Positions 18,039 through 59,996 of a stretch of 64,000 nt of DNA are shown one piece after another (positions within the stretch are counted from its first letter, which is position 1; each line of letters starts with the position of its first letter). Source of the DNA: a bacterium (GTDB taxonomy: Bacteria > Patescibacteriota > Minisyncoccia > CAIUEV01); NCBI GenBank assembly GCA_021779915.1, contig JAJXZR010000029.1, positions 12,495 to 76,494 of the forward strand, given 5' to 3'. The notes beneath the pieces were generated by a model that saw nothing but the letters and a program-made list of their open reading frames with translations, searched no databases and was not told the origin of the DNA. Both the position numbers and the translations under genes were made by a program.

Positions 18039-18152
18039 AATGACGAATGACGAATATCGAATATCGAATGACGAACCAATAATAGAAGATATTTTTTGCC
18101 ATTTTATATTTGGATTTGATTCGTCATTCGTCATTTGGAATTTGTCATTTTA
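18039..18152. repeat. TGACGAA-heptad palindromic element (T1) between convergent stop codons
   Basis: atgacgaatgacgaatatcgaatatcgaatgacgaa ... ttcgtcattcgtcatttggaatttgtcatt. Confidence 0.7.
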
Positions 18153-18154
18153 TC

Positions 18155-18826
18155 CTAGTTTCTCCTAATCACACACCCTTCTTCTCTTTCCTTCTTAAAT
18201 TTATTAACAATCTTAAAGCGAATTTGGTTTTCTCCAGGTTTTAGGAATACGGGAGAAGAAAAGACTCCATTTTTGTCAACCAAGATATCTTCTCCGTTAA
18301 TAAAAATGTGTCCTTCTGGCTGGATGGTACCTCGAAGCTCTATTGTTTCTTCATTTGTGTTGAAGGGACAAGTAGCCGGACTGCTCAAGGCAAAAGAGGG
18401 CTGGCTGTAGAGAGGTAAAATTATTTTTATTAAAAAATATATCAACGTCATACTTATCATTGTTCCCATTAGCAAAATAAAATTTCTATAGTTTACATAA
18501 CGAAAAATTTTTGAATAGGGGCTTATCGGATGAAAAGAAAAAGAATCTTTTTCGACTCTTTTCTTTCTTTTTTCATAAAGCAAGATGGCTTTTTTGGGAT
18601 CAATTTGAACAAAATTAGCATAGCTTCCAACAATACCTCTGGAGTAAATATTGGGAGGAAGTGAGAAAAAATCATTTTGTTCCAGAGCGATTATGTATTC
18701 TTTACTTATAGTAAGAGACTTAGCGACTGTTTCGATCGTTAACCCCAATGATTCCCTTCCATTTTTCAAATAATCCCCCAAATTTTCTTCGTTAATTTTT
18801 CTAACCTTAAAGGCTGAGTCTCTCAT
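18155..18826 (-). CDS. RodZ-like helix-turn-helix membrane protein (XRE-type HTH, single TM, C-terminal DUF4115-like domain)
   Basis: N-terminal HTH, central TM helix, C-terminal beta-rich domain. Confidence 0.5.
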   Translation of the reverse strand: MRDSAFKVRKINEENLGDYLKNGRESLGLTIETVAKSLTISKEYIIALEQNDFFSLPPNIYSRGIVGSYANFVQIDPKKAILLYEKRKKRVEKDSFSFHPISPYSKIFRYVNYRNFILLMGTMISMTLIYFLIKIILPLYSQPSFALSSPATCPFNTNEETIELRGTIQPEGHIFINGEDILVDKNGVFSSPVFLKPGENQIRFKIVNKFKKEREEGCVIRRN

Positions 18827-20276
18827 CGCTTAGATATTGTTTAGAAAATATTTGCTTGATTTCGGAAATTTTAATTCCCGAAGTAAGAAACAATAGGCCT
18901 ATATAAATTCCTGAGCTTATAAGTCCTTTTATAACAAGACCGGTCCAAAGAGAGAAAGATAAGCCATTAAGAAGGTATAATGCAATAATCATTCCTAATG
19001 ACGACACTAATAGTGATAGGACTGGGAGTGGCTTCCAGCCCTTGCCCCGCCCAATACCCCATTTTCTACTGACAAGGAAAACCACAAAAGTTACCAAGGC
19101 TTCAGAAATAGTTGATATCACAGCTGCTGCCATAAAAGAGTAATAAGGAATAAAAATTACATTAAGGACGATATTAAGAAAAGCCACTCCTGAAAGAATA
19201 AGCAACAGCAATCTTTGTTTATTAACAACGATCAGAATACTGTTGAAAAAATGAGCCAAAAAAATAGCTCCAAGCGCAGGGGCTAAGATTTTCATTACTA
19301 GTGTCGACTCCTCAAAGCCTTTTCCAGCAATTATTCTTACTACTTCTCCTGATAGGAAAAAAATTAGAATAGTAATGGGTAGAGTAACGACCCATAGAGT
19401 TTTTAAAATCTGACTGGCAATCCTAAGAAATTTCTTGGGATATTTGAAAATATTATAGGAAAAAACCGGCATAACAAGACCCATAAACATGAAGGGGAAA
19501 TAAATCAAACTCTCTATCACCTTGTAGGCAGCTCCATAAATTCCTACGTCATGGCTAGTTTTATAGTGAGAAAGCAATAATATATCGGCTTTGAAATATA
19601 AAAAATTGACAATGGCGGCGAGTCCAAGAGGAAGAGATTCTTTGAGAAAATATTTCCAATATTTTTTATCAATCGAGAAAGTGGGTCTGATATATTTTCC
19701 AGCTAAATTCCAAGAAGCAAGAAAAATAAAGAGGTAACTCGAGGCAGTGGCGGCAACAACTCCACCTACGCCCAAATTGTAACGAACTGCCAAAAAAGTC
19801 AAACCTACCTGAAGAATTCTACCAGTAAGCTCTCTCCAAGCCAAACGGTTCATTACCAGTCTCTTCTGAAAAATGCTGTTTAGAGTTTGGGAAAGAGAGG
19901 TAAAAACAAGAGCTATACACATAATCCAGATGCCTTGTTTGATTGATGGGGCATAGTTTAAGAAAAACACACAGACAGCGCCTATAAAAGCAACAACGGA
20001 AGAAACTGTCAATTGAAGTCCTAAAATATTTGCCACAATATTTTTTTCATCTGCATCGGGTCGAGAGATTTCTCGGGTAAGAATTTGGGTAATCCCAAAA
20101 TCAGAAAGCGCCGTGATAAGGAAATAAAAGGCGATAACCGTTGAATAATCGCCATATCCTCCCGTTCCCAAATAGCGGGTCATAAGGCCTACCGTTATGA
20201 GAGCTAAAGCCAAGCTCAAAACTCGAGTAGTGGCTGCAATTATTGAATTGTGGGCAATGCGAGAAGCAAGAGACAT
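18807..20276 (-). CDS. polysaccharide/lipid-linked oligosaccharide flippase (MOP superfamily, Wzx/MurJ-like)
   Basis: 489 aa with about 14 TM segments and a MOP-family N-terminus. Confidence 0.6.
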   Translation of the reverse strand: MSLASRIAHNSIIAATTRVLSLALALITVGLMTRYLGTGGYGDYSTVIAFYFLITALSDFGITQILTREISRPDADEKNIVANILGLQLTVSSVVAFIGAVCVFFLNYAPSIKQGIWIMCIALVFTSLSQTLNSIFQKRLVMNRLAWRELTGRILQVGLTFLAVRYNLGVGGVVAATASSYLFIFLASWNLAGKYIRPTFSIDKKYWKYFLKESLPLGLAAIVNFLYFKADILLLSHYKTSHDVGIYGAAYKVIESLIYFPFMFMGLVMPVFSYNIFKYPKKFLRIASQILKTLWVVTLPITILIFFLSGEVVRIIAGKGFEESTLVMKILAPALGAIFLAHFFNSILIVVNKQRLLLLILSGVAFLNIVLNVIFIPYYSFMAAAVISTISEALVTFVVFLVSRKWGIGRGKGWKPLPVLSLLVSSLGMIIALYLLNGLSFSLWTGLVIKGLISSGIYIGLLFLTSGIKISEIKQIFSKQYLSDERLSL

Positions 20277-20462
20277 AGGAGGGATGTAGAATTATTTAAT
20301 AATTTTCAATTTCACAATATTTTAATGTTATAGACTAAATTTTTCTTTTTACAATCACTTTTATTAGTGTAGAATTGTTTGAGAAATTAAAAAACTAAAT
20401 CTCTTGGAACTTGTTTGAAAATTGTGAATTAAAAATTTTAATTCGTATTTAACTTAAAAACA

Positions 20463-20750
20463 ATGAAAAATATATTTTCTGACCAAAAAGACAATATTGA
20501 GAATAATATTGATGACTACGAAAAGGATATTCCAAAAGATGGTTTAGCGCAAAAAAGAAAAATATTGGATGCAATTGAAGAAGCCCCCAAGCCCTTTTTG
20601 AATCTCGAGGAAAAAGATTTAGGAGAATTGAAAAAATCCCAGGTGGATTATAAAACTCTCGTTGCTAATAGAAACCAGGGGGAATTTAGCAACGGAAACA
20701 GTGTAAAAGTAGATAATTTTTCTGGTTTAAGGAATAAACCGAGGTACTGA
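20463..20750 (+). CDS. hypothetical protein
   Basis: 95 aa acidic ORF; the stop codon is followed directly by repeat H3. Confidence 0.3.
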   Translation: MKNIFSDQKDNIENNIDDYEKDIPKDGLAQKRKILDAIEEAPKPFLNLEEKDLGELKKSQVDYKTLVANRNQGEFSNGNSVKVDNFSGLRNKPRY

Positions 20751-20754
20751 GTGT

Positions 20755-21005
20755 GTGTCATTCTCGGCGTGTCGACCGGGAATCCAGGAGGATAGTATTG
20801 GTCTAACAAAATTCCAAATTCCAAGAAACAAATTACCCACCTACCGGTAGGCAGGCAAACAAGATACGATTTTCCAAATTAAAAATTAAAAACATTATTT
20901 TTTTATTTTAAATTTGTGATTTTGAATTTGTTTGGAACTTGTTTCTTGCTTCTTGGAATTTTATGGTCTTACTTACATAGATCCTCGCTTTCGCAAGGAT
21001 GACAC
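20755..21005. repeat. MITE-like palindromic element, hairpin-TIR family with internal arms (H3), inverted relative to H2
   Basis: GTGTCATTCTCGGCGTGTCGACCGGGAATCCAGG ... GGATCCTCGCTTTCGCAAGGATGACAC; internal ttacccacctaccggtaggcaggcaaacaag. Confidence 0.75.
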
Positions 21006-21044
21006 GGAGGCAGGAACTTAAAACTAACAAATTAATCTACCTCT

Positions 21045-22703: not shown

Positions 22704-22711
22704 ATTTCTCT

Positions 22712-23263
22712 ATGAGTTTTGATAAGGGAAAACTTTTCATTATTACCGGAGCAGACGGATCCGGAAAAACGAAGGTGATTGAAGATCTGGAAAAGATTAA
22801 GTCTTTTTATTTGGTAAATTACATTACCACTGCTTCTCAAAGCGAAAAAGGAGTAGTTCCGGTCAGTTGGGATAATTTTCAATCATTCGCAGAGAACGAC
22901 GGTTTTGTTCTTTCTTTCAAAAAAAGAAATGCGATGACAGGAGTCACTCATGAGGAGATTAAAAAGGCCGAAGCAAGCGGTCAACCGATCGTTTGGGAGA
23001 TTGATATCCAGTGGATTGAAGATATTAGAAACGAACATCCGGAAGCGACTACAATTCTCGTAAATGGACTGGACGCCGAAGGATTTTATCAGCACTATGA
23101 AAGCAAAGGGAGCGCCGTACCCACTCTTACGGCAATCAAAGCTCAAAGAGCTGAGCATCTGCACGAATGGGGCAGAGGACAAGTAGATTACATCGTAGAA
23201 AATAAATTTGGAGAAAGCGCCAAAGCAGCAGAAGAAGTGAAAAAGATAATGGAAGGAGGATAA
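22712..23263 (+). CDS. guanylate kinase-like P-loop nucleotide kinase
   Basis: GADGSGKT P-loop and a C-terminal VDYIVENKF...EEVKKIM segment like Gmk. Confidence 0.45.
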   Translation: MSFDKGKLFIITGADGSGKTKVIEDLEKIKSFYLVNYITTASQSEKGVVPVSWDNFQSFAENDGFVLSFKKRNAMTGVTHEEIKKAEASGQPIVWEIDIQWIEDIRNEHPEATTILVNGLDAEGFYQHYESKGSAVPTLTAIKAQRAEHLHEWGRGQVDYIVENKFGESAKAAEEVKKIMEGG

Positions 23264-23392
23264 AAAATGACGAATGACAAATGTCGAATGACGAATTAAT
23301 GGCAAAATCCAAATATCAAAAAATTTTGTCATTTGGTATTTGAAATTTATCGTTTTATTAGAAATTAGGTGAATTAGGTTAATTAGAAATTT
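23264..23392. repeat. TGACGAA-heptad element (T2) with an ATTAGAAATTAGGTGAATTAG right terminus
   Basis: aatgacgaatgacaaatgtcgaatgacgaatt ... ttttgtcatttgg ... ttagaaattaggtgaattaggttaattagaa. Confidence 0.6.
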
Positions 23393-23396
23393 TATA

Positions 23397-24254
23397 ATGT
23401 CTTCTCTCTCCTCCGATCTCTCAGACTCTCTCTCAAAAAACAATATCTTCCCCAATAAAAAATTAGGTCAGTGTTTTCTTGTTTCAAAAAAAGCTTTGGA
23501 GCAAATTATAAAAGCTTCCAAAATAAAAAAAGGTGAAAAAATACTGGAAATTGGTCCGGGAACAGGAATTTTGACTAGAGAATTATTAAATCGGGGAGCC
23601 AAGGTTGTTGCAGTTGAAAAAGACAAGCGCCTTTTTGAAATAATTAGGGATAACTTTCAAAAAGAAATTAAGGAGGCAAGGCTAACCCTTATAAAAGGAG
23701 ACTTTCTGAATTTAAATTTCCCTCGATTTTTAAAAGATTTGAATTTTAAAGAAAAAGAATACAAAGTTGTTTCCAATTTGCCCTACCAAATCACTTCTCC
23801 TGTTCTCAAAGTTTTATTAGAAGAAAATTTTCTTCCTAAAGACATCATTATTACCATTCAAAAAGAGGTTGCGATGAGAATTTGTGCTGGTAAAGGAGAG
23901 CTTGGTTCTTTGAGCGTAATGGTTCAATCCTGCTCAAAAGGATGTAACATAGTGAACAAATTTCCTCCATCATATTTTAAACCTCAGCCAGAGGTTGATT
24001 CTGCCTTGATCAAAATTGAAGGGCTGGACTATCCTAAGGGAATTGATATTAATTTTCTGAGAAATCTTCTCCGAATTGGGTTTTCTTCTAAAAGAAAAAA
24101 ATTAGCAAAGAATTTTAAAAATGTTTTTCCTAAAGAACAAATCGATATTATTTGGGAAGAGTTAAATATACCGGAGAATGTTAGAGCGGAGGATTTAGTA
24201 GTAGAGAAATGGGGGGAAATCGCAAGGAAGATCAAAACTTGGAGTACAAATTAA
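23397..24254 (+). CDS. rsmA: 16S rRNA (adenine1518-N6/adenine1519-N6)-dimethyltransferase
   Basis: GQ.FL motif, SAM-binding LEIGPGTG, 285 aa. Confidence 0.85.
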   Translation: MSSLSSDLSDSLSKNNIFPNKKLGQCFLVSKKALEQIIKASKIKKGEKILEIGPGTGILTRELLNRGAKVVAVEKDKRLFEIIRDNFQKEIKEARLTLIKGDFLNLNFPRFLKDLNFKEKEYKVVSNLPYQITSPVLKVLLEENFLPKDIIITIQKEVAMRICAGKGELGSLSVMVQSCSKGCNIVNKFPPSYFKPQPEVDSALIKIEGLDYPKGIDINFLRNLLRIGFSSKRKKLAKNFKNVFPKEQIDIIWEELNIPENVRAEDLVVEKWGEIARKIKTWSTN

Positions 24255-24623: not shown

Positions 24624-27600
24624 ATGTCTCTTTCGAAAAAAGTTAGTGGCGGAAAACAGCAAGATTTTGAGGAAATTGCCCTTCGTGATACAACCAGAAG
24701 ATTAAGCAGGGCTTCAGAAGAGGAACAGGCTGCCATTCGAGCGGCTGGGTCCGGTCTTCCTTACCTTGATCTCAATATTTTTCCCGTAGGGGCGGAAACT
24801 TTAAGCATTCTTCCCGAAGAAGTGGCTCGACTAGGAGAAATTACCGTTATCCAGAAAGCGGGACGAGAAATTAAGGTAGGAGTTTTTGACCCCAACAACA
24901 AAACCACTCAAGAAGTTTTGGAAAAGTTGGAAAAAGACGAAGGATATCGTATTAAACTTTACATCGTTTCCAGAACCAGTCTTAAAAGAACTTGGGATAG
25001 ATATAAGCACATTAATCTAGCTTCTTCCCTGGAAGATATGATGCTGACACTTTCTGGCAAGGATTTAGAAAAATTTGAGAACGACATTAAAGAGCTTGTT
25101 GACCTAAAGAAAAGAATCCGGGAACTTCCAACCACCGAAGTATTAAACGTCATTATCGCCGGTGCAATCAAGATGGATGCTAGCGATATCCACACCGAAC
25201 CTCAAAAAGATGATGTTCGCATCCGTTATCGTCTGGATGGAGTTTTGCATGACATTGTCCATATTCCTTACAATTACTACCCTTACGTCCTTTCTCGAGT
25301 GAAAATGCTTTCTGGACTCAAACTCAATATCAAAGACCGTTCACAAGACGGACGTTTTTCCATCAAAACTAACAAGTACGAGATTGACGTTCGTATTTCA
25401 ATCCTTCCGGGAAATTATGGAGAAAACATAGTAATGAGGCTTCTCAACCAAAACGAAACTGGATTCACTTTGGAAGATTTAGGTCTTCGCGGAAGAGCCG
25501 CTGAACAACTGGCTATTCAAATGGCCAAACCTAACGGAATGATTCTTAATACCGGACCTACCGGTTCTGGAAAAACCACCACTCTTTATGCTTGTATCCG
25601 CAAATTGAATTCTCCCGACACAAAAATAATCACTATTGAAGACCCGATAGAATATCGTTTGGCAGGTGTATCCCAAACTCAAGTTCACAAGGAAAGAGGA
25701 TATGATTTTGCTAATGGTCTTCGAGCGATTGTTAGACAAGACCCTGATGTAATTTTGGTTGGGGAAATCAGAGACGAAGAAACGGGAGATATTGCAGTCC
25801 ACGCCTCTTTAACGGGACATCTGGTGCTTTCCACCCTTCACACTAACAGCGCCGCCGGAGCTATTCCTCGTTTGATTGATTTGGGAATCCGGCCTTCTCT
25901 TATCACTCCTTCGATTAATTGTATTATTGCTCAAAGGCTAGTTCGAAAACTTTGTCCTTTTTGCCGGGAAGAATATGTTCCTGCTCAGGAGACTTTAGAA
26001 AGCATGAGTCGCTTCTTGTCGATTATTTCCCCTAAAGCGCGAGTAGAAGTTCCGAAAAATATCACCACTCTTTATCGGGCAACGGGCTGTCCAAAATGCC
26101 ACGGATTGGGATATAAAGGCAGAATCGGAATATTTGAAATTTTTGAAGTCACTCCTTCTATTGAGAAACTAGTTCTAGAAATGGCTCCTGCTTCCGATCT
26201 TTTGGCTGCTTCTATGGAAGAAGGGATGGTAACAATGCTTCAAGACGGAATCCTTAAGGCCGCCGAAGGAATGACTTCGATGGAAGAGGTTGAAAGAGTG
26301 ACGGGATCCGGCCAATACCTGCAAGAAATTTACGAAAAAATTATGGTGCAACTTCTTTCACTCCAGCTAAAAATCACCGCAAAGCAAGGCGAAGAAGTGG
26401 TTGGTTGCGGATATGAAGCAAAAAATATCGCTGACTACATTCAAAAAGCATCAAATAAAGATATTCTTAATTATATTGTGGCTGGAGGGCTTTCTTTCGA
26501 TGCGGGAGATATCCACATGGAACCGCAAGGAGATAGAATAAAAATCCGCTATCGGATTGACGGTATTTTGGAAGATATTACTGATATAAAGGCAAGCGAC
26601 TATTTGCCGGTTCTTTCTCAAATAAAACTACTGGCCGGACTCAAAACCGATTCCCACGCTGCCGTTCAAGACAGTCGTTTTGGGATCAGTCTCGAAACAC
26701 CGATCCGCGACATCCCTAATAAACAAATAGACGTGAGAGTTTCCATTATTACTGGAGGGTATGGAGAAACAGTGGTGATGAGACTTTTGCATAAATCAGC
26801 TCAAGCCCTGGAAGTAGAAAAAATCGGTTTCCGACCACAACTACTGGACAAACTATTACGCGAAATTGAAAAACCCAACGGAATGATTCTTAACACAGGA
26901 CCAACCGGTTCTGGAAAAACTACCACTTTGTACTCTCTTCTTAATCGATTGAATAAACCCGAAGTTAAAATCATCACTGTGGAAGACCCAATTGAGTATC
27001 GCTTGGCGGGAATATTGCAAACTCAGGTTTCAGTTGATGAAGGATACAATTTTGCCGACGCTCTGCGAGCGCTCCTTCGCCAAAATCCGGATATTATGAT
27101 GATTGGGGAAATTAGAGATGAAGAAACGGGAAAAATTTCTATCCAAGCCTCTTTGACAGGGCACTTGGTACTTTCCACTTTGCATACCAACAATGCCGTA
27201 GCTTCTATCCAACGTATGATCAATATGAACATCGACCCCACTGACATCGCCACCGCTACCAACGCCATGATGGCTCAAAGATTGGTCAGAAAGCTTTGTC
27301 CTGTTTGCAAAAAGAAAGTTCCTATTACTCCCGATAACAAAAAAAGATTGGAAGAAATTATTGCCGGAATTCACCCCTCGACTGGAATTTCAATTCCAAG
27401 CAACACAGTTGACTTTCTATATGAACCAGTTGGCTGTTCAGAGTGTAAAAACATAGGTTTCAAGGGAAGATTTCCCGTCGCAGAACTAATGCTAATGACT
27501 CCGACTCTCGAAGAAATGGTAGCCCACTTTGCCATCACTTCTGAAATTGAAAAACAAGCCATCCAAGAAGGAATGCTCACTATGACCCAAGACGCAGCCC

Positions 27601-27659
27601 TCCGCATCGCCGACGGAGAAACCAGTCTGGCCGAAGCAGCGAGATTGACAGAGCTATAA
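24624..27659 (+). CDS. tandem-fused double GspE/PilB-family ATPase (T2SSE_N domain plus two complete ATPase cores)
   Basis: two Walker A motifs GPTGSGKTTTLY at about aa 312 and 754, two Walker B DPDxIxxGEIRDEET boxes, two His boxes GHLVLSTLHTN, two tetracysteine motifs. Confidence 0.8.
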   Translation: MSLSKKVSGGKQQDFEEIALRDTTRRLSRASEEEQAAIRAAGSGLPYLDLNIFPVGAETLSILPEEVARLGEITVIQKAGREIKVGVFDPNNKTTQEVLEKLEKDEGYRIKLYIVSRTSLKRTWDRYKHINLASSLEDMMLTLSGKDLEKFENDIKELVDLKKRIRELPTTEVLNVIIAGAIKMDASDIHTEPQKDDVRIRYRLDGVLHDIVHIPYNYYPYVLSRVKMLSGLKLNIKDRSQDGRFSIKTNKYEIDVRISILPGNYGENIVMRLLNQNETGFTLEDLGLRGRAAEQLAIQMAKPNGMILNTGPTGSGKTTTLYACIRKLNSPDTKIITIEDPIEYRLAGVSQTQVHKERGYDFANGLRAIVRQDPDVILVGEIRDEETGDIAVHASLTGHLVLSTLHTNSAAGAIPRLIDLGIRPSLITPSINCIIAQRLVRKLCPFCREEYVPAQETLESMSRFLSIISPKARVEVPKNITTLYRATGCPKCHGLGYKGRIGIFEIFEVTPSIEKLVLEMAPASDLLAASMEEGMVTMLQDGILKAAEGMTSMEEVERVTGSGQYLQEIYEKIMVQLLSLQLKITAKQGEEVVGCGYEAKNIADYIQKASNKDILNYIVAGGLSFDAGDIHMEPQGDRIKIRYRIDGILEDITDIKASDYLPVLSQIKLLAGLKTDSHAAVQDSRFGISLETPIRDIPNKQIDVRVSIITGGYGETVVMRLLHKSAQALEVEKIGFRPQLLDKLLREIEKPNGMILNTGPTGSGKTTTLYSLLNRLNKPEVKIITVEDPIEYRLAGILQTQVSVDEGYNFADALRALLRQNPDIMMIGEIRDEETGKISIQASLTGHLVLSTLHTNNAVASIQRMINMNIDPTDIATATNAMMAQRLVRKLCPVCKKKVPITPDNKKRLEEIIAGIHPSTGISIPSNTVDFLYEPVGCSECKNIGFKGRFPVAELMLMTPTLEEMVAHFAITSEIEKQAIQEGMLTMTQDAALRIADGETSLAEAARLTEL

Positions 27660-30795: not shown

Positions 30796-30796
30796 A

Positions 30797-30914
30797 ATAA
30801 ATGACGAAGTTCGAATGACGAATGACGAATTGTGGTGTTCACTATCCTCACAATCAATCGTCGCCTTCGGTGACACCTTAATTTGTCATTCGTCATTCGA
30901 ACTTCGTCATTTAT
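30797..30914. repeat. TGACGAA-heptad palindromic element (T3) between convergent stop codons
   Basis: aatgacgaagttcgaatgacgaatgacgaatt ... aatttgtcattcgtcattcgaacttcgtcattt; nearly perfect inverted halves. Confidence 0.75.
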
Positions 30915-31621
30915 TGAAACAGCCCTTCATTAAATATCAGATTTATAAGGGTGGCTCTGGCTGGGGCGACTCCCCAGACTTCATACGAACCACCTAATTG
31001 ATTCAAATTAACGTCTCCTCCAATAATATTAGCAAAAACTGCTGCTTCTATTTTGGGAGGAGTTCCCCAAGTGCAGTTTCCTTCTAGCATTCCCTTAACT
31101 GTGCCTTGGCAGTCTCCACCCTGCTGTTTGCCCAGTCCTTCAAAAAGAAAGGGGATTCCAAATTGCAGATTTTGTTTGGCAATTCCTCCAGCATTGTCAA
31201 GAGCCGCTACGGCTAGTCCTCCCGCAGGAGCGCTCGCAAGCGTCGCTGGAGTACCAAAACTTCCATAGGTGAGAAGTTCGTTACGATACTGATCGACCAA
31301 AGTACTCCAAGCATTTTGGTTGACATCTTCAATTTGTTTGAGAAGTGTTTGAACATCACTAACAAAATGACCTCCCATGGATTGCATGCCGGCATGCCCC
31401 TGAAAAACAAACTGCAGTTTTTCCGGTACTTGGTTCTGAGATACCCGAGACTGAGGGTCTTGATAAGAGTCGGGAGCACTGGCTTGTCCCGCTCCAACAT
31501 TAATATTTCCACTAGGACCAAAAAGCCCGCCACCAGGAGAAAGATTGGCAGCACTGGCTACATTAAAAATGGTGATGGGAAACAAAATTGTAAGAGCTGA
31601 AATAAGAAATGTTTTTTTCAT
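30911..31621 (-). CDS. secreted hypothetical protein (signal peptide, Gly-rich)
   Basis: N-terminal signal peptide MKKTFLISALTILFPITIFNVASA. Confidence 0.45.
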   Translation of the reverse strand: MKKTFLISALTILFPITIFNVASAANLSPGGGLFGPSGNINVGAGQASAPDSYQDPQSRVSQNQVPEKLQFVFQGHAGMQSMGGHFVSDVQTLLKQIEDVNQNAWSTLVDQYRNELLTYGSFGTPATLASAPAGGLAVAALDNAGGIAKQNLQFGIPFLFEGLGKQQGGDCQGTVKGMLEGNCTWGTPPKIEAAVFANIIGGDVNLNQLGGSYEVWGVAPARATLINLIFNEGLFQ

Positions 31622-33019: not shown

Positions 33020-33190
33020 ACACTAGTTCATCAAGTTTATCAAGTTACGCGAATTAGTTTAGAAGGTTTAGAAAGTTTTGAAAGTTTAGAAAGACAGAAT
33101 GGTGCTTTTTTATGAAAAATATTATAACCAAAAACTCTCTGACTTTCTAAACTTTCCTAACCTTCTAAACTTTCTAAACTAGCTTTCCTG
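33020..33190. repeat. composite palindromic repeat: CTTGATAAAC units upstream of tRNA-Tyr plus a GTTTAGAAAG palindrome
   Basis: rc of 33024-33049 reads taacttgataaacttgatgaactag; gtttagaaaggttt.../...aaactttctaaac inverted halves. Confidence 0.5.
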
Positions 33191-33789: not shown

Positions 33790-33961
33790 GTGTCACCCTA
33801 ACTCCACCTGTCATTCCCGCGAAGGCGGGAATCCAGGAAGATTTTATTAAATTAATAGAATGTTATTTTAGTTATTTTCTTAACTATAGAACCCAAACAA
33901 TCATTCTTTTAGTCTAATAAAGTATTAGTTTACTGGATTCCCGCCTTCGCGGGAATGACAC
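33790..33961. repeat. MITE-like element, hairpin-TIR family, short subtype (H7)
   Basis: GTGTCA...TGTCATTCCCGCGAAGGCGGGAATCCAGG ... CTGGATTCCCGCCTTCGCGGGAATGACAC; compensatory hairpin variant. Confidence 0.75.
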
Positions 33962-36850: not shown

Positions 36851-37095
36851 GTGTCATCCCGGGCTTGACCCGGGATCCAAGAGAATAGAAAATTGCTCTA
36901 ATTAACCTAATTATACCCACCGCCTAAGGCGGGATCCCGCTTTGCGGTGATAATTGACCTAAAAAAGCACCAAACAATAAAAAATAAATCTTGAAAATTG
37001 GTTCTTGGCATTTTATTTAGAACAATTAGATCAATTAGGGTAATTAGAATAATTGGCGAGTCTAACTAGATCCCGGGTCAAGCCCGGGATGACAC
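36851..37095. repeat. MITE-like element, hairpin-TIR family, long subtype (H8), inverted relative to H1
   Basis: GTGTCATCCCGGGCTTGACCCGGGATCCAAG ... CTAGATCCCGGGTCAAGCCCGGGATGACAC; internal aattagggtaattagaataatt module. Confidence 0.75.
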
Positions 37096-37768: not shown

Positions 37769-37810
37769 TAGTTTATCAAGTTTATAAAGTTATAAAGTTT
37801 ATCAAGTATT
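37769..37810 (-). promoter_or_regulatory. CTTGATAAAC direct-repeat motif abutting the trmD start codon
   Basis: rc: CTTGATAAACTTTATAACTTTATAAACTTGATAAACTA-ATG. Confidence 0.5.
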
Positions 37811-37818: not shown

Positions 37819-37926
37819 AAAATATTTTGTTTCAAATTGGGAAACTGTGTTTTAAAAACTATGATTTTCTTATAGGAAATCCCCTAGTTTTTAAAACACA
37901 GTTTCCCAATTTGAAACAAAATATTT
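37819..37926. repeat. 42-bp perfect inverted repeat separated by about 35 bp in the divergent trmD / 37993 intergenic region
   Basis: aaaatattttgtttcaaattgggaaactgtgttttaaaaact ... agtttttaaaacacagtttcccaatttgaaacaaaatatttt. Confidence 0.7.
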
Positions 37927-37992
37927 TTTGAAGATTAAACTTTATCAACTAGTTAATTCATAGTATAAAATTATAAAGCTTTAAATTCAATT

Positions 37993-44759: not shown

Positions 44760-44899
44760 GTGTCATCCCGGGCTTGACCCGGGATCCAGGAGAGTGGTAT
44801 TAGTCTAATAAAATGTTAGTTTGTTCAATCTCTTACAATGCACATTAAAATAACATTCTGTTAGTCTAACTGGATCCCGGGTCAAGCCCGGGATGACAC
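44760..44899. repeat. MITE-like element, hairpin-TIR family, short subtype (H9)
   Basis: GTGTCATCCCGGGCTTGACCCGGGATCCAGG ... CTGGATCCCGGGTCAAGCCCGGGATGACAC; nearly perfect. Confidence 0.8.
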
Positions 44900-45050: not shown

Positions 45051-45755
45051 ATGTTTGATACTCGTGGACTTGAAAAATTTTCCTTAGTTGAATGGCCTGG
45101 GAAAATGTCGGCCATCATTTTCACCGGCGGATGCAATTTTCGCTGTCCTTTTTGTCATAATCCGGAATTAGTAACTGAGCTTCAAAAGACACCGATTTAC
45201 CCCTGGGAAGAAATTGAAAAATTTCTTAACAAAAAAGTGGGGTGGATTGATGCGATTATTATCACTGGGGGGGAGCCTACTCTACAAGAGAGTTTACCTG
45301 AAATTCTCCAAAAAATTAAAAAAATGGGATACTTAACCGGAATCGCAACTAACGGAACCAATCCTGAAATGCTGGAAGAACTGATAAGAAAAAACTTGCT
45401 GGACAAGATAGCTATGGACATCAAAAGCTCCGAGGAAAAATATTATTTAGCAACAGGCACGAATGAAGTTGGCTTGGAAAAAATTAAAAAGAGTATCAAT
45501 TTGATAATCAACAGTGGAATCGAATATGATTTTAAAGTGACTTTAGCTCCAGGAATAGTCGAAACTAGCGATATTGAAGGAATCGGGAAATTCATTAAGG
45601 GAGCAAAAAAAGTCACTCTTCAACAATTCCGCCCCCTTAAAACACTTGACAAAACCTTCGAACACAAAGTACCCTATTCACTAGATACTATTAAAGAAAT
45701 GAAAGAAATTTTGGGTAGTTACGTTGAAAGTGTTAGTTTGGAAGGAATAGAATAA
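45051..45755 (+). CDS. nrdG: anaerobic ribonucleoside-triphosphate reductase activating protein-like radical SAM enzyme
   Basis: WPGKMS...GGCNFRCPFCHNPE matches the NrdG-type signature (WPG, GCN.RC..CHN). Confidence 0.6.
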   Translation: MFDTRGLEKFSLVEWPGKMSAIIFTGGCNFRCPFCHNPELVTELQKTPIYPWEEIEKFLNKKVGWIDAIIITGGEPTLQESLPEILQKIKKMGYLTGIATNGTNPEMLEELIRKNLLDKIAMDIKSSEEKYYLATGTNEVGLEKIKKSINLIINSGIEYDFKVTLAPGIVETSDIEGIGKFIKGAKKVTLQQFRPLKTLDKTFEHKVPYSLDTIKEMKEILGSYVESVSLEGIE

Positions 45756-45836
45756 AAATTTCAATTTCTAATTTTCAATTTTCAAACAATTTTCAATTTA
45801 TTAATTACTCAATTACATAAATAATACCCGTCTAGT

Positions 45837-45928
45837 GTGTCATCCTTGCGAAAGCGAGGATCCAGGAGAATGATATTAGACTAATAGAGTATTAATTTCC
45901 TGGATTCCCGCTTTCGCAGGAATGACAC
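45837..45928. repeat. MITE-like element, hairpin-TIR family, minimal subtype (H10)
   Basis: GTGTCATCCTTGCGAAAGCGAGGATCCAGG ... CTGGATTCCCGCTTTCGCAGGAATGACAC. Confidence 0.75.
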
Positions 45929-46016
45929 GTGTTTCTTTGTTTGAAAATTAATGAATTGTAAAATTGAAAATTGTTTGAAAATTGAAAATTAGAAATTGAA
46001 AATTTTTTAATACACT

Positions 46017-47108: not shown

Positions 47109-47157
47109 TGATTTGAATTTCTAATTCACCTAATTTTTAATTTACCTAATAAAATAA

Positions 47158-47390
47158 CCAAATTCCAAGAAACAAATTACAAACAAGAAACAATTTTCCA
47201 AATTAAAACATCCCACGTGTCATCCCCGGCGTGTTGACCGGGGATCTAGGAAAATTATATTTTACTAGTCTAATATAATTCTCCTGGATCCTCGCTTTCA
47301 CAAGGATGAAACGCTAAAAGGGTATTGTTTTGTATTTCGAATTTGTTTGTAATTTGTTTCTTGCTTCTTGGAATTTTTATTAGAACTTAT
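47158..47390. repeat. composite element (H11): hairpin-TIR core (47217-47322) flanked on the outside by ccaagaaacaa inverted arms
   Basis: arm ...aattccaagaaacaaattacaaacaag... | GTGTCATCCCCGGCGTGTTGACCGGGGATCTAGG ... CTGGATCCTCGCTTTCACAAGGATGAAAC | ...cttgcttcttggaatt arm. Confidence 0.7.
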
Positions 47391-47417
47391 GTAAATTAGA
47401 AATTAAACTAAAACCTC

Positions 47418-49673: not shown

Positions 49674-49702
49674 GGAATATAATTTTCAATTTGACTTATT
49701 TT

Positions 49703-49826
49703 TCTCCCCTTCAGATGAAGGGGAGTACCCCGTAGGGGGAGGGGTTTGATGCCGAAGGCCGAATTTTGATCGCTTCGCGTTCAAACCCTCCGCCCTTACG
49801 GGCACCTCCCTTCATCTGAAGGGAGG
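49703..49826. repeat. 124-bp GC-rich nested palindrome after the topA stop (G1)
   Basis: tctccccttcagatgaaggggag-taccccgtagggggaggggtttga ... tcaaaccctccgcccttacgggca-cctcccttcatctgaagggagg. Confidence 0.7.
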
Positions 49827-49872
49827 AAAAAGTCACCTTTTAGGTGAATTAGAAATTTTAATTATCTTTCCT

Positions 49873-53590: not shown

Positions 53591-53592
53591 TT

Positions 53593-55156: not shown

Positions 55157-55221
55157 GAGAAAAAGTTTAAAGTTAAAAATTCTATACTAAAAAAATTATT
55201 ACACTTGAAATATTTAACCCC

Positions 55222-55433
55222 GTGTCCTCCCGGGCTTGACCCGGGATCCAGTTAAACTCACTAAATTATTCTAATTGCTCTAATTAGCCTAATTATTCTA
55301 AACAAAATACCAAGAACCAATTAAAAAATTTTTGTTTATTGGTACTTAGTGCTTTTTAGAATAATTAGTATAATTAGGTTAACTAGAGTAATTCTCTACC
55401 CGCCTGGATCCCGGGTCAAACCCGGGATGACAC
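55222..55433. repeat. MITE-like element, hairpin-TIR family, long subtype (H12)
   Basis: GTGTCCTCCCGGGCTTGACCCGGGATCCAG ... CTGGATCCCGGGTCAAACCCGGGATGACAC; internal ctaattagcctaattattctaaacaaaata module. Confidence 0.8.
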
Positions 55434-55441
55434 CTTTCCTT

Positions 55442-56755
55442 TTAATTAAAAAGGCTCACGCCTCTTAGGACAACTAACACTAACGTTACTATCGAAATTC
55501 CAATCGCAAAAATTGCAAAAGCTTTTTTTCCTTGACCGTTTTCTTTGAATTCTTGAAGATAGTCTAATTCCTTTTGTTTCCTAAGAAATGTCAGCGAAGC
55601 AAAAATAAACAGCATCCAGACCAAGAAATAAAGCAAGGTACTTTCCGAATAGTATAGCAATTGTCCCGTCATAACCCCAAACAAGGATCCAATGATTGCC
55701 AGCGTAAGAGTCCTTTCCGTTTTGCCGGAGAGAAAAGCGACTATTCCAAAGATTAAAATAAAAAATTCAAGTGCCAAATAAAACAATATTTTATCGAGCA
55801 GTATGGGGTGATTTAATAAAACCGAATAATACGGCATAATAGAAACTTTTTCCGTATGCAGTATGAGAGGAGAAGTAGCTTGAGAAAAGGAAAAAAGAAA
55901 AACAAAGAAAAGATATTTTCCTTTCCCCTTTGTAATATTTCGAAGAAAAGAACCGTTTTTAGGAAGAGGTATTCCCAACTGTCTTTGGTCGGCTCTTTCC
56001 ACTTCTCCCCGATGTTTGAATAAAAAATCAAAAAAAACAATAATCCCGGTTCCAGAAGCCCACACCCACCAGCTGAGGGGATAATCCAAAACCGATGAGA
56101 TAAAAAGGAGAGCCAACGCACTGAAAAGATTCAACCAATCCATCACTTTTTCTTTGACTTTAACCGTCCACCAAAGAGCTAGGGAGGTTACCCCACAAAC
56201 TGCCACCACCAAAGAAGGGGTTCTTGCGAAATTAGCCGTTATGAACTCACTTTTCCCAAAATAAGCCAATATAACAAGAAAAATCGAAGAAGCCGACAAA
56301 GAGAAAAGAAACATCTCCAAATTTTGTCGCCAAGAGTCTTTAGAAAAAAACTGCGTACCCAAAAGGTAAAAAATAAAAAAAGTCACGTATTCACTCACTC
56401 CGGAAGTAAAACTCCCTTGATAACCTTCCCAGGATATTTGATGGTTGTTTGAATACAAAAACAACACCCCAAGAAGAAATGAAAGGAAAATTACCACCCA
56501 ATTAAACCTGTTTCTTTTCCACTCCAGCGCTCCTCTCTTGATAATCCCCATTAAACTGACGATCAGCATTAATCCTACAATCAGAATTAAAAAAGATTGT
56601 TTAAGAAGTTCTAGAGGTTTGGAGTAAAGAAAAAACAGCCAAGGAAAGGCGATTGTTAGAATAATCATTCCACTCTTCAAAATATTTTCTTCTATTTTTC
56701 CTTTTTCCAAATAACTTTTATTTCCCGCCAAATTAGAGTTTTGTATTTGAAACAT
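55442..56755 (-). CDS. polytopic integral membrane protein (O-antigen polymerase/ligase-like)
   Basis: 437 aa, at least 10 TM helices; no strong motif. Confidence 0.35.
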   Translation of the reverse strand: MFQIQNSNLAGNKSYLEKGKIEENILKSGMIILTIAFPWLFFLYSKPLELLKQSFLILIVGLMLIVSLMGIIKRGALEWKRNRFNWVVIFLSFLLGVLFLYSNNHQISWEGYQGSFTSGVSEYVTFFIFYLLGTQFFSKDSWRQNLEMFLFSLSASSIFLVILAYFGKSEFITANFARTPSLVVAVCGVTSLALWWTVKVKEKVMDWLNLFSALALLFISSVLDYPLSWWVWASGTGIIVFFDFLFKHRGEVERADQRQLGIPLPKNGSFLRNITKGKGKYLFFVFLFSFSQATSPLILHTEKVSIMPYYSVLLNHPILLDKILFYLALEFFILIFGIVAFLSGKTERTLTLAIIGSLFGVMTGQLLYYSESTLLYFLVWMLFIFASLTFLRKQKELDYLQEFKENGQGKKAFAIFAIGISIVTLVLVVLRGVSLFN

Positions 56756-56904: not shown

Positions 56905-57128
56905 ACAATTTCCAAACAAGATACAATTTTCCAAATTTGAAAAACCAAACAACTTCACGTGTCATCCCGGCCCCTGAGCCGGGATCCAGAAAAATAATAT
57001 TTTAAGAGTCTAATATTATTCTCCTGGATCCCGGGTCAAGCCCGGGATGACACACTAAAAGGGTACTATTTGGAGTTTGTGATGCTTGAATTTGTTTGGA
57101 ATTTGTTTCTTGTTTCTTGGAATTTTTT
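56905..57128. repeat. composite element (H13): hairpin-TIR core (56959-57053) flanked by outer ccaaacaag / cttgtttcttgg arms
   Basis: GTGTCATCCCGGCCCCTGAGCCGGGATCCAG ... CTGGATCCCGGGTCAAGCCCGGGATGACAC. Confidence 0.75.
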
Positions 57129-57199
57129 AAATTTAGTTTTAGGAATTTTATTAAAGATTAGACTAAATTAGAACTTAAAAATTTATTTTAACTACCATC

Positions 57200-58081
57200 A
57201 TGGTTTCTCAAAAAATAAAAAAGGCCATTATTGCCGTGGCAGGAAGTGGGACTCGATTGCTTCCAGCCACCAAGGCTATGCCCAAAGAAATGCTTCCAAT
57301 TGTAGACAAGCCGATTATTCAATTAGTGGTGGAAGAATTGATTGAAGCAGGAATTGAAGATATTATTCTTGTTACCAAGTGGGACAAAAAACCATTGGAA
57401 GACCATTTTGATAGAAGCTGGGCTCTAGAGAATGAACTGGAAAAAAACAACAAGCTAGAAAAACTGGAAGAAATCAAAAGAATTTCCGAACTGGCTAATT
57501 TTATTTATGTCAGGCAGAAAGGTCCTTATGGAAACGGTACCCCGGTTCTTTCGGCCGGAAGCTTGGTAGATGACGAACCTTTTGTTTTTGTTTGGGGAGA
57601 CGATCTAGTTAAAGCTAAGCAATCTTTTACTAAATCAATGGTAGAAGATTACGAAAAAAACGGACATCTCATGATAGGAGTTCAAAAAGTGCCAGAAACC
57701 GAAGTCAGTCGTTATGGAATCGTAAAACTTCGAGAAGGAACTAATGAAATCGAGGACATTATTGAAAAACCCAAGCAAGAAGAAGCTCCGTCTTGCCTTG
57801 CCGATTTTGGCAGAATGATCCTTGATCAAGAAATAATCAACATCTTGAAAAACACAGCTCTTGGAAAAGACAATGAGCTTTGGATTGTCGACGCTATCAG
57901 AACTTACGTGAAAAACGGGGGAATTTTCCTGGCTAAAGAAGTGGAAAATGGGGAATGGATGACAACTGGGGACGCTCTCAATTACCTAAAAGCCACTCTA
58001 GCTTACGCTTTTGACAGAGAGGATTTAGCTAGGGAGATTGAGGCGTATATTGGGAAGATCAAGGGGGGATCTGGGGTTTAG
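57200..58081 (+). CDS. galU: UTP--glucose-1-phosphate uridylyltransferase
   Basis: KAIIAVAGSGTRLLPATKAMPKEMLP N-terminal signature. Confidence 0.85.
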   Translation: MVSQKIKKAIIAVAGSGTRLLPATKAMPKEMLPIVDKPIIQLVVEELIEAGIEDIILVTKWDKKPLEDHFDRSWALENELEKNNKLEKLEEIKRISELANFIYVRQKGPYGNGTPVLSAGSLVDDEPFVFVWGDDLVKAKQSFTKSMVEDYEKNGHLMIGVQKVPETEVSRYGIVKLREGTNEIEDIIEKPKQEEAPSCLADFGRMILDQEIINILKNTALGKDNELWIVDAIRTYVKNGGIFLAKEVENGEWMTTGDALNYLKATLAYAFDREDLAREIEAYIGKIKGGSGV

Positions 58082-58148
58082 TTAAGTTTTTTGCAATAAT
58101 TAAATCTACCATCCTGTTAACATAAAATATTTTTAATTCATCTACTAA

Positions 58149-58266
58149 AATGACTAATGACTAATATCGAATGACGAATCAATGACAAAGTCCTAATATC
58201 AAAAAATTTTGTTATTTGGATTTCGGATTTGGTTTGTTATTTGTCATTCGGAATTCGTCATTTGAT
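58149..58266. repeat. TGACGAA/TGACTAA-heptad palindromic element (T4) after the galU stop
   Basis: aatgactaatgactaatatcgaatgacgaatcaatgacaaag ... ttgtcattcggaattcgtcatttg. Confidence 0.65.
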
Positions 58267-58336
58267 TAGTTAGATTAGGCTTTTTTGCAGTTTCTCTTGA
58301 ATAATCAGTTTAATTATTACTCTTCATCAACATCTA

Positions 58337-59812
58337 ATGTCTTCAAACCAAACCCTCAAACAACTTCTTGCGGATCGAAAGAAAAAACTCGATTTAATTA
58401 AAGAAGCGGGGGTTAATCCCTATCCGAGCAAAGCAAAACGTACTTGCACAAATGCTGAGGCTTTGAAAAATTTCAACAAATTAAAAAAAAGAAAGATTAC
58501 TTTGGTCGGGAGAATAATGGGAAAGAGAGGCCATGGAGGAATAAATTTTGCCGATCTGGAAGATGAAAGTGGTAAAATCCAAATTGCCCTCAGAAAAGAT
58601 GAGATCGGAGAGAAAAATTTCAATATCTTTTTGAATTTAATTGAAAGGGGAGATTTTATTGAAGTTGAAGGAACTCTTTTCCTAACCCGTGCCGGAGAAA
58701 AAACGTTAGGAGTTTCTCGATGGAAACTTCTTTCCAAAGCCTTAAAGCCTCTTCCGGAAAAATGGAAGGGATTACAAAGCGAAGAATTACGCTACCGAAA
58801 GCGCTATCTTGATCTTCTTACCAACCAAGAAACAAGAGAAAGATTTAGAAAAAGAAGCCATTTCATCGAACTTTTACGTAATTTTCTTCTTGGCAAAGGA
58901 TTTCTGGAAGTGGAAACTCCCATTTTACAACAAATGGCTGGGGGAGCGATTGCTAAGCCTTTTAAAACTAGACACAATGCTCTTGGACAGGATTATTTTT
59001 TACGCATTGCTCCCGAGTTATATCTCAAAAGATTGATCGTTGGCGGATTCGAGAAAGTTTTTGAATTTGCCAGAAATTTTCGCAACGAAGGAATCAGTAC
59101 CCAGCATAATCCCGATTTTACCATGCTAGAATTTTATCTTGCCTACAGTGACTACGAGAAACTGATGAGCTTGACCGAAGAGATGTTTAAAAAAATCATC
59201 CCCAAAATCAACGGATCTTTTGTCATAAATTTTCAAGGAAAAAAGTTTGATTTTAAACCTCCTTATAAAAAGGTATTGTTTAGTGATTTAGTAAAGAAAG
59301 AATTAAAGCTGGATATGGATAAGTTGAAAAGAAAAGATTTGTTAGAGATAATCAAGAAGAACTCAATTGAACTAAAAAATATCAGCTCGGAGTCAGATGC
59401 GAAACTCCTAGATGAAATATACAAAAAAATAATTCGTCCAAAACTTTCCGGTCCGTTATTTCTGATGGATTATCCCAAAGAAATGATTCCTCTTGCCAAA
59501 ACTAAAGAAGAAAATCCCAAACGAATTGCTACCTTTCAACTGATTGTTAATGGTTGGGAAATAATTAAAGCCTACAACGAGCTTAATGATCCTGGGGAAC
59601 AAGCCGATCGTTTTTTAGAGCAAGCTAAAGCAAAAGAAAAAGGCGACGAAGAAGCTCACGGTTTTGATGAAGATTACGTTGAGGCTCTTTCCTACGGCAT
59701 GCCCCCAACAGCTGGCTGGGGAATGGGGATAGACCGATTTTTGGCTATTTTATTGGATCAGAAGAATTTAAGGGACGTGATTTTGTTTCCCTTGAGGAGG
59801 AAGAAGGATTAA
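58337..59812 (+). CDS. lysS: lysine--tRNA ligase (class II)
   Basis: OB-fold anticodon-binding domain plus class II core (motif 2 FRNEG, motif 3 GMGIDR). Confidence 0.9.
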   Translation: MSSNQTLKQLLADRKKKLDLIKEAGVNPYPSKAKRTCTNAEALKNFNKLKKRKITLVGRIMGKRGHGGINFADLEDESGKIQIALRKDEIGEKNFNIFLNLIERGDFIEVEGTLFLTRAGEKTLGVSRWKLLSKALKPLPEKWKGLQSEELRYRKRYLDLLTNQETRERFRKRSHFIELLRNFLLGKGFLEVETPILQQMAGGAIAKPFKTRHNALGQDYFLRIAPELYLKRLIVGGFEKVFEFARNFRNEGISTQHNPDFTMLEFYLAYSDYEKLMSLTEEMFKKIIPKINGSFVINFQGKKFDFKPPYKKVLFSDLVKKELKLDMDKLKRKDLLEIIKKNSIELKNISSESDAKLLDEIYKKIIRPKLSGPLFLMDYPKEMIPLAKTKEENPKRIATFQLIVNGWEIIKAYNELNDPGEQADRFLEQAKAKEKGDEEAHGFDEDYVEALSYGMPPTAGWGMGIDRFLAILLDQKNLRDVILFPLRRKKD

Positions 59813-59817
59813 AGAAG

Positions 59818-59996
59818 TTCTAATTCACCTAATTCCTAATTCACCTAATAAAATGTCAAAGGTCAAATGACGAATGACGAATTAATTCCGAATATCAAAT
59901 GACAAAAAAAGTATTTTGAAATTTGGATTTTGTCATTGATTTGTCATTTGACATTAGTCATTTGTCATTTTATTAGAAATTAGGTGAATTAGAACT
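59818..59996. repeat. TGACGAA-heptad element with TTCTAATTCACCTAAT / ATTAGGTGAATTAGAA terminal inverted repeats (T5) after the lysS stop
   Basis: ttctaattcacctaattcctaattcacctaat-aaaatgtcaaaggtcaaatgacgaatgacgaatt ... ttgtcatttgacattagtcatttgtcatttt-attagaaattaggtgaattagaa. Confidence 0.75.

Follow-up and report, generated by a model that had tools for sequence, protein, structure and literature searches.

The 64,000-nt stretch of DNA analysed here (the window; positions 12,495 to 76,494 of contig JAJXZR010000029.1, assembly GCA_021779915.1) carries five palindromic elements, T1 to T5, each built from tandem copies of a 7-nt unit of the AATGACG/CGTCATT type and each lodged in a spacer between genes. 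The genes themselves are largely of the housekeeping kind: a glycosyltransferase, a RodZ-like helix-turn-helix (HTH) protein, rsmA, lysS, ileS, topA, dnaJ, gatB and others. The closest named relatives of the lysyl-tRNA synthetase (LysRS) belong to Candidatus Moranbacteria / Moraniibacteriota, at 68% identity, and judged from sequence the host is a Moranbacteria-like bacterium of the Candidate Phyla Radiation (CPR; Patescibacteria). A cyanobacterial origin, suggested by the resemblance of the elements to short tandemly repeated repetitive (STRR) sequences, is ruled out by a HIP1 count of 0 and by the Moranbacteria affinity of LysRS. The window has 37% GC and is rich in simple repeats, among which period-7 arrays (43) and period-9 arrays (34) far outnumber those of any other period.

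The five elements follow one layout, in which four to five tandem AATGACG-type heptads lead into a core and then into an inverted CGTCATT array, over a length of 115-190 bp. Tandem Repeats Finder recovers period-7 arrays with the consensus AATGACG at 18039-18075, 23266-23296, 30800-30830, 58149-58179 and 59866-59882, and inverse ATTCGTC / ATTTGTC arrays at 18119-18150, 30881-30911 and 59939-59970. Together with the complementarity of the arms, these calls bear out the preliminary description of this DNA, which had placed tandem heptads in two inverted halves at the five loci. A two-unit probe (GAATGACGAATGAC, at most two mismatches) finds 18 matches in the window, all 18 within T1-T5, against 0.35 expected from shuffles and a largest shuffle value of 2. 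T1 (18039-18154) consists of a left AATGACG-type arm at 18039-18075, a core at 18076-18118 and a right CGTCATT/TGTCATT arm at 18119-18152, its 38-nt arms being 76% complementary. T2 (23264-23396) has a left arm at 23266-23296, a core, a decayed right arm at about 23325-23358 and an outer 9-mer shell, ATTAGGTGAATTAGG, at 23359-23392, present on the right side only and with no left partner. The arms of T3 (30796-30915), at 30796-30838 and 30873-30915, are 43 nt long and 93% complementary, and they enclose a different core with a small GC hairpin, GTCGCCTTCGGTGAC. T4 (58131-58283) is a heptad palindrome at 58149-58266 between degenerate remnants of a 9-mer shell (58131-58146 and about 58267-58283). 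T5 (59818-60003) is a nested structure, in which a shell of CTAATTCAC units (59818-59849 and 59972-60003) surrounds heptad arms at 59851-59907 and 59914-59976.

Beyond the heptads, T1, T2, T4 and T5 have a core in common (...AATCAATGACAAAGTCC.AATATCAAAAAATTTTG..ATTTGGATTT...), to which the core of T3 is unrelated. Every window copy shows the ends (T)AAAATGAC...GTCATTTT(A), with A-runs or T-runs at the flanks and without sharp boundaries. Some units are degenerate (AATATCG, AAGTTCG, AAAGGTC), and pairing between the arms is kept nonetheless. Outer inverted repeats had been described on T2 and T5, with recurrences at 47110 and 49840; they are confirmed on both sides of T5 and on the right of T2 only, a degenerate copy flanks T4, and the recurrence is wider than first described, the outer repeat TTCTAATTCACCTAAT occurring 21 times in the window against 1.8 expected.

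The elements keep close company with gene ends. Upstream plus-strand open reading frames (ORFs) end at 18038 (T1), 23263 (T2), 30795 (T3) and 59812 (T5), so that these four elements directly follow real stop codons. The same had been claimed for T4, where it fails: there the gene upstream stops at 58081, at a distance of 67 nt, and no ORF of at least 20 aa terminates in the TAA at 58146-58148. T1 makes up the entire gap between the convergent stops of the glycosyltransferase gene (plus strand, ending at 18038) and an HTH_25 gene (minus strand, ending at 18155). T3 likewise is the entire gap between a 966-aa gene (plus strand, ending at 30795) and a convergent 236-aa gene on the minus strand, whose stop (30911-30913) lies inside the right arm of the element; neither of these two proteins falls into a confident Pfam family. 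T2 stands between a Gmk-like gene (ending at 23263) and rsmA/ksgA (starting at 23397), T4 within the 255-nt spacer that runs from an NTP-transferase gene (ending at 58081) to lysS (starting at 58337), and T5 between the lysS stop (59812) and a promoter-like TTGCCT-17-TATAAT of ileS. In the window genome the A-run that begins the element would regenerate a TAA, and TGA is present in all three frames.

RNA folding, which the preliminary description had proposed as a check, yields long predicted hairpins for five of five elements, with z from -2.6 to -13: -35.8 kcal/mol for T1 (z = -5.4), -25 for T2 (z = -2.6), -67.5 for T3 (z = -13), -36.7 for T4 (z = -4.3) and -70.2 for the whole of T5 (z = -11). 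An Rfam scan of the window returns three tRNAs only at or above the gathering score, and no match to an element.

Comparison with syntenic relatives, found through LysRS and RsmA and with gene order kept at the T1, T2 and T4 sites, reveals how these spacers look when unoccupied. The T1 spacer measures 116 nt in the window vs 9 nt in relative L227, and the T2 spacer 133 nt vs 13 nt in the same relative; in L226 the T2 site is an 84-nt gap with a different heptad palindrome. Against 255 nt in the window, the T4 spacer comes to 15, 31, -4 and -1 nt in the four relatives with DNA sequence read and, in a fifth, taken from called genes only, to 8 nt. Given these empty sites in syntenic relatives, the copies T1, T2 and T4 are lineage-specific insertions and are dispensable. 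Absence from closely related genomes had been named beforehand as a sign of recent selfish spread without function. T5 differs from these three copies: its ortholog, the same nested element in the same place, is present in L125 (77% LysRS identity). Between window and L125, 150 of 165 aligned nt of T5 are identical (91%), vs 49-54% of lysS third codon positions, synonymous sites being saturated. Such conservation would reflect either constraint or concerted evolution. Within the population itself, contig L123 (4031-4111, compared with window 59939-59970) has a T5 right arm that lacks exactly 21 nt, or three heptads, which leaves the arms unequal; to all appearances this difference is slippage.

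Farther away the occupant of the spacer changes. In more distant relatives the lysS-ileS spacer holds other heptad palindromes, with units TGAAAAT, ATTAGTT and ATTTAAG/CTTAAAT, and the Moraniibacteriota assembly GCA_043807525.1 has a heptad family of its own, AGATTTA / TAAATCG including CGTAATT units, at the T5- and T2-equivalent spacers (L133 11490-11588; L226 3915-4010 and 6762-6870); the ATTTAAG family is the one found in the T2-equivalent spacer of this assembly as well. Across five genomes the lysS-ileS spacer folds strongly in three (z -10.9, -9.9 and -5.1) and weakly in two. Since the lysS-ileS and T2-equivalent spacers carry other heptads in relatives, heptad families appear to be replaced from genus to genus, with certain spacers remaining occupied. 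A heptad element 75-78% identical over 114-121 nt is also found in L017, an unclassified metagenome-assembled genome (MAG) contig of 43% GC with purB, purD and parAB; it carries in addition a repetitive extragenic palindrome (REP) 94-97% identical to a window REP, and has no nucleotide similarity to the window besides these repeats. The proposal that the elements form a family resembling MITEs (miniature transposable elements with inverted repeats) is supported by the common core of T1, T2, T4 and T5, by the empty sites in relatives and by this L017 match.

The same palindrome recurs well beyond the CPR. In a reference set of contigs, one genome per species, a 26-base gapped pattern (AATGACGAATGAC-N45-75-GTCATTCGTCATT) is found at no fewer than 120 loci (at least 120, vs about 0.01 expected by chance from our own arithmetic). 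By record title, the 120 matches listed comprise 56 from Verrucomicrobiota and 42 from Planctomycetota, which makes 82% from the Planctomycetes-Verrucomicrobia-Chlamydiae (PVC) bacteria, along with Bacteroidales (7), Acidobacteriota (4), Chloroflexota (4), a 'Nealsonbacteria' bin (2), Bacillota (1) and unclassified records (4). Every one of these listed matches is from a MAG, mostly of 55-72% GC, and they are true palindromes down to the odd spacers between units, with loops unrelated between loci. L009 and L011 (JABMRB01, 'Candidatus Nealsonbacteria' bin.20) carry PVC-like heptad palindromes at 60-63% GC, which is unusual for a CPR bin, and these contigs may be mis-binned. Lineage-specific subfamilies occur, such as a ACGCAAGCG...CGCTTGCGT core in several Verrucomicrobiaceae contigs. 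Register is strict across phyla: unit cores lie 7 nt apart in 980 cases and 14 nt apart in 168, with 13 nt in 2 and 15 nt in 15. Heptad palindromes also occupy spacers immediately behind tRNA genes or between them, in contigs of soil metagenomes and in a Gemmataceae MAG (L137, about 1000-1090; L140, about 860-940; L027, 563-757).

Gene context across phyla, taken from crude gene calls, shows the same leaning towards gene ends. The 97 classified cases divide into 27 convergent, 58 tandem and 12 divergent, a depletion of divergent spacers (p=0.0017), and in tandem contexts the elements lie nearer the stop side, many flanking ORFs terminating within the first heptads. A mirror form, (CGTCATT)n...(AATGACG)n, exists at 91 metagenome loci, mostly as a stand-alone element, and divergent spacers are likewise depleted (5/49, p=0.0085). 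A universal arm polarity is ruled out, as both arrangements exist. Unselected array pairs are forward rather than mirror by 13:1 in forward-fetched loci and by 1:6 in mirror-fetched loci, and one arrangement is kept per genome, though both exist. AATGACG arrays give TGA in all frames from either side, and a three-frame stop module was considered as the reason for their placement; it fails as a general reason, since the same 3'-end bias is found at the 91 loci of the mirror form, which presents no stops on entry. Twelve cross-phylum loci searched against Rfam returned sub-threshold microRNA-hairpin noise only. All-against-all clustering of the 2,883 ORFs of the 120 loci brought up ABC ATPases, MoxR/DUF58 and response regulators, with no dedicated neighbour protein, and no recurrent transposase was found near these loci.

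How specific is the unit itself? Loci with three perfect units in IMG/VR number 33 for AATGACG, 13 for AATCACG, 64 for AATTACG and 19 for AATAACG, against 1 for AAGTACG and 5 for ATGAACG, two permutations that serve as composition-matched controls and to which only the G and C variants (AATGACG, AATCACG) are strictly matched in composition. Because the AAT-N-ACG variants all outnumber the permutations, the unit is a constant ACGAAT/ATTCGT with a free fourth base. Most arrays on IMG/VR viral contigs are solitary direct arrays, and a BLAST search of plasmids with the element, under a low-complexity filter, gave a single match, the direct array TTGGTCATTCGTCATTCGTCATTCGTCATT on a Scytonema plasmid. 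The literal 14-mers and stand-alone heptamers turned up no description in the searchable literature, of which coverage was incomplete. Bacteria have been recognised since 2007 to carry heptamer repeats in excess, and we know of no explanation for this.

Together, these observations are best accommodated, with moderate confidence, by a reading of the five loci as copies of a non-autonomous palindromic 'heptad-satellite' repeat, intermediate between STRR arrays, REP/REPIN (paired REP) sequences and MITEs. Because they have a homologous core, T1, T2, T4 and T5 were copied from one another and not grown in place, and their spread to new spacers would need a trans-acting activity encoded elsewhere. 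Replication slippage would resize the arms in steps of 7 nt, and arm length does differ by a multiple of 7 nt within one population (T5 in the window vs L123). The symmetry of the arms might be due to hairpin-templated (quasipalindrome) template switching, an established source of mutation, to selection for pairing, or to the two combined. The 3'-end bias would come mainly from tolerance of insertion just past stop codons: given the ends found in the window copies, an element inserted at the TA of a TAA stop would restore that stop, which would explain the zero-distance placement. At some sites, lysS-ileS above all, the RNA hairpin was probably co-opted as a barrier or insulator at the 3' end, and this would explain the conservation of T5. 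The occurrence of a common heptad, with the core ACGAAT/ATTCGT, in many phyla points to a sequence-specific partner or process.

Several observations weigh against this reading. With arms of variable heptad number, no defined terminus of the element emerged, and the TA that could count as a target-site duplication on both sides of T1, T2 and T5 might equally be the palindrome extended, TA being itself palindromic; in relatives the empty sites have diverged too far for an alignment that would test for a duplication. About 1.4 Mb of loci contained no autonomous element and no gene-sized insert bounded by arrays. T3 could be a case in which arms wrapped around a pre-existing hairpin and nothing was copied, because its core is unrelated. 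A host function accounts better than pure selfishness for the conservation of T5 and for the heptad palindromes at lysS-ileS in several relatives. Nor does the satellite model by itself account for one heptad being conserved from phylum to phylum. Could the arrays, in their strict 7-nt register, be cis-sites for a conserved trans-acting factor present in Planctomycetes, Verrucomicrobia and scattered other lineages including this CPR bacterium? Such a putative factor is a tentative and, on balance, improbable proposal; it could be identical with what acts on CGTC-tagged REPs, in which the head (C/T)GTCATTC equals the heptad. Were it true, the elements would make up one class of gene-end cis-element or mobile DNA spanning the phyla under a single recognition code, and not many independent simple repeats.

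The elements could instead be host transcription terminators or protective hairpins of mRNA 3' ends, bidirectional between convergent genes, with their repeat nature incidental. In favour, four elements come immediately after a genuine stop and two span exactly the interval between convergent stops; A-runs and T-runs border the window copies; the conservation of T5 clearly exceeds the neutral level; three of five genomes have a well-folding lysS-ileS spacer; and across phyla the elements avoid divergent spacers. However, the T1, T2 and T4 sites of relatives measure 9-31 nt and lack a hairpin, and T2 occupies what is a 13-nt intercistronic gap in L227. The stems are AT-rich, the sole hit of a simple terminator scan is the small GC hairpin within T3, and a run of three or more T follows only 12 of 127 cross-phylum copies; with no U-tract and no scan match on the heptad stems, canonical intrinsic terminators are ruled out. 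The preliminary description was right about the bias towards gene ends; the terminator role that it proposed fits poorly with the relatives that lack a hairpin and with the missing U-tract of the cross-phylum copies. In the plus-strand RNA of T2, T4 and T5, G-U pairs are enriched, making it 9-13 kcal/mol more stable than the antisense, which would suit an RNA-level function; selection on RNA was nevertheless discarded as the cause, for the asymmetry is seen in the convergent-context copies T1 and T3 too and is absent from 26 cross-phylum tandem-context copies (p=0.39), and for the same reasons strand mutation bias is the likelier source. A function in structure alone would also leave unexplained why distant phyla have one heptad in common, and why the L123 allele lacks three heptads in one arm. 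On these grounds a terminator or 3'-end protective role for the elements at large is unlikely.

A different possibility is that the heptads are cooperative binding-site arrays, one protomer per heptad, for a putative sequence-specific nucleic-acid-binding protein; ribbon-helix-helix, response-regulator-type or cold-shock-domain proteins would be candidates by analogy, and the palindrome would be a by-product or would bring two arrays together. Precedents for heptad binding, useful as leads only, include the direct and inverted WATCACW arrays of the omega repressor, the Spo0A box TGNCGAA and the heptamers of CspB. The strict 7-nt phase, held through degenerate units, fits such a protein, as do the specificity of the unit in IMG/VR (33 loci vs 1 and 5 for the permutations) and its use in both hairpin polarities as well as in solitary direct arrays. 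Yet no candidate protein adjoins the elements in the window or at the 120 other loci, the window copies are heavily degenerate while still pairing, close relatives carry quite different heptads in the same spacers, and hundreds of gene-end sites would be atypical of a regulator, all of which makes binding arrays a rather doubtful explanation. That the arrays are low-complexity sequence arisen by chance in an AT-rich genome, or an artefact of assembly, might be suspected from the GC content of 37% and the many simple repeats and is hardly credible: 18 probe matches stand against 0.35 expected, the independent assemblies L001, L002 and L123 contain identical sequence, another species has an ortholog, and the gapped palindrome has its 120 or more reference loci where about 0.01 would be expected, counts that already refute the idea.

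The heptad palindromes share the window with two further kinds of repeat. What had been called a hairpin family with terminal inverted repeats is a CGTC-type REP in a TGTC variant, made of a TGTC tag, an 8-bp stem starting with AT, a loop of 4-6 nt and a CCAG tail; the view that the heptad family is distinct from it is a fair one. The window holds 17 such units, mostly as inverted dimers, with the stems ATCCCGGG, ATTCCCGC, ATCCTTGC and ATCCCGGC, at 15209-15444, 33809-33960, 44760-44899, 45837-45928, 47217-47312, 55222-55436, 63196-63420 and other sites. They match the CGTC REP definition of Di Nocera et al. 2013 (PMC3733652), who list the superfamily in five phyla, the CPR not among them, and who already describe REP dimers inside longer palindromes. 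The other kind consists of 9-mer palindromes, with the units CTAATTCAC/AATTATTCT, AGTTTATCA and AGTTTAGAA, at 552-659, 13828-13963, 33056-33180, 36896-37054, 37770-37807, 55264-55393 and 63237-63376. These enclose T5, are enclosed by REP dimers (55157-55445, 63157-63470) and enclose REP dimers in turn (47109-47417), so that REP dimers, 9-mer shells and heptad arms nest in either order. No transposase, recombinase or RAYT was found among the roughly 48 window ORFs.

Other palindromes of the window stand apart from these families or combine them. The longest inverted repeat, at 45754-46006, has 61-nt arms of 89% complementarity in which heptads of the TTGAAAA/AATTTC type surround a REP dimer (spacer z = -21.9). 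Where trmD and its neighbour diverge, the spacer holds a perfect inverted repeat of 43 nt (100% complementary) with a 23-nt loop (37819-37927), and a GC-rich palindrome with 59-nt arms (TTTTTCTCCCCTTCAGATGAAGGGGAG...) lies downstream of topA (49699-49831), unlike the AT-rich families and with a 9-mer shell on the right only. Among the genes, the ORF at 2846-4000 joins a PD-(D/E)XK nuclease to a Mu Gam/Sipho_Gp157-like domain of TOTE conflict systems and is a possible defence gene candidate in a CPR genome. Two genes, at 11994-13775 and 24624-27659, encode PilB/T2SSE-type ATPases, the second (1011 aa) with two T2SSE domains.

Individually, the window elements are unremarkable and belong to ordinary repeat biology; the cross-phylum AAT-N-ACG palindromes are the unexpected part. 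One 7-base unit builds gene-end hairpins at hundreds of loci in Planctomycetes, Verrucomicrobia, Bacteroidales, Acidobacteria, Chloroflexi and the CPR. A unit so widespread and so easily searched offers a concrete handle on the long-noted over-representation of heptamers, and perhaps a route to a factor that would bind or mobilise it. Unexpected for the CPR, a lineage regarded as streamlined, is the share of spacer, about 15% of the window and mostly nested palindromes, with some 25 of the 40 spacers of at least 60 nt folding at z <= -5. CGTC-type REPs, too, occur in the Patescibacteria.

The nearest known relatives of such elements come from several repeat classes. STRR heptamers of heterocystous cyanobacteria were reportedly described by Mazel and colleagues in 1990. 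The class comprises the three tandemly repetitive heptanucleotides of Calothrix PCC 7601 (cited in PMC4692102). Like them, the window elements are made of tandem 7-nt intergenic units in variable copy number, and STRR arrays are sometimes inverted and hairpin-forming as well; STRR2 (TTGGTCA) is even one mismatch away from TTCGTCA, although the window unit is not one of STRR1-3. Unlike STRR arrays, the window elements are discrete palindromes with a common core and nested shells, their hosts are CPR and PVC bacteria and no heterocystous cyanobacterium, and they display both insertion polymorphism and an orthologous conserved copy (T5).

REP, bacterial interspersed mosaic element (BIME) and REPIN sequences, including the CGTC superfamily (Di Nocera et al. 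2013, PMC3733652; Bertels and Rainey 2011, PMC3116915), are likewise extragenic palindromes that lie mostly between unidirectional and convergent genes, whose dimers fold into larger structures and nest in longer palindromes, and CGTC REPs, like the heptad elements, have no known transposase. A REP, in contrast, is a single stem-loop of 20-40 bp with an unpaired tag and a CCA tail, whereas heptad arms are simple-sequence arrays; lacking any tagged stem-loop unit, the heptad elements do not qualify as REPs. The heptad (C/T)GTCATT does coincide with the CGTC REP tag plus the first three stem bases. At L205 (1650-1830) a CGTC-REP dimer (CGTCATTCCCGCGCAAGCGGGAATCCA...) has its head heptad duplicated outward (GGTCATT CGTCATT CCCGC), which suggests that heptad arrays could arise from REP heads. 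As a general origin, amplification of REP heads was set aside: L205 is one case, and TCCC follows the last unit in only 6% of cross-phylum copies, so that continuation into a REP stem is not the rule and the idea is no more than a lead.

Bacterial MITEs, such as Correia/CREE of Neisseria, Nezha of cyanobacteria, RUP and ERIC (review PMC10969869), are 100-200 bp long, have inverted ends, form RNA hairpins, occur in multiple copies with presence/absence polymorphism, supply stop codons and lie at gene ends. The heptad elements agree in size, in being non-coding and multi-copy (five in 64 kb, with more in L125 and L017), in their inverted arms and hairpin folds, in the stop codons that they can provide, in their seat at gene ends and in insertion polymorphism, and they differ in having no demonstrable terminal inverted repeat of fixed length or target-site duplication and no cognate insertion sequence (IS); an autonomous IS was not found among the window genes or at the loci examined around arrays. 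Intrinsic bidirectional terminators resemble the window copies as hairpins after a stop, symmetric between convergent genes, with A-run and T-run flanks. The heptad stems, unlike theirs, are 30-70 pairs long, AT-rich and repetitive, lack a U-tract across phyla and occupy sites that are empty in relatives.

A further class is formed by the intergenic heptamer arrays of TAACTGA in Beggiatoaceae, cyanobacteria and Bacteroidetes (PMC4679880) and of GGGAATC / GGGGAYT in Xanthomonas and Nostoc (PMC4692102). Here too one heptamer is amplified in the spacers of distant bacteria while near-variants are much rarer, and here too inverted pairs occasionally stand between convergent genes. Those arrays are mostly direct, and often lie upstream of start codons or form G-quadruplexes, whereas the heptad elements have a different unit, are inverted and stand at 3' ends.

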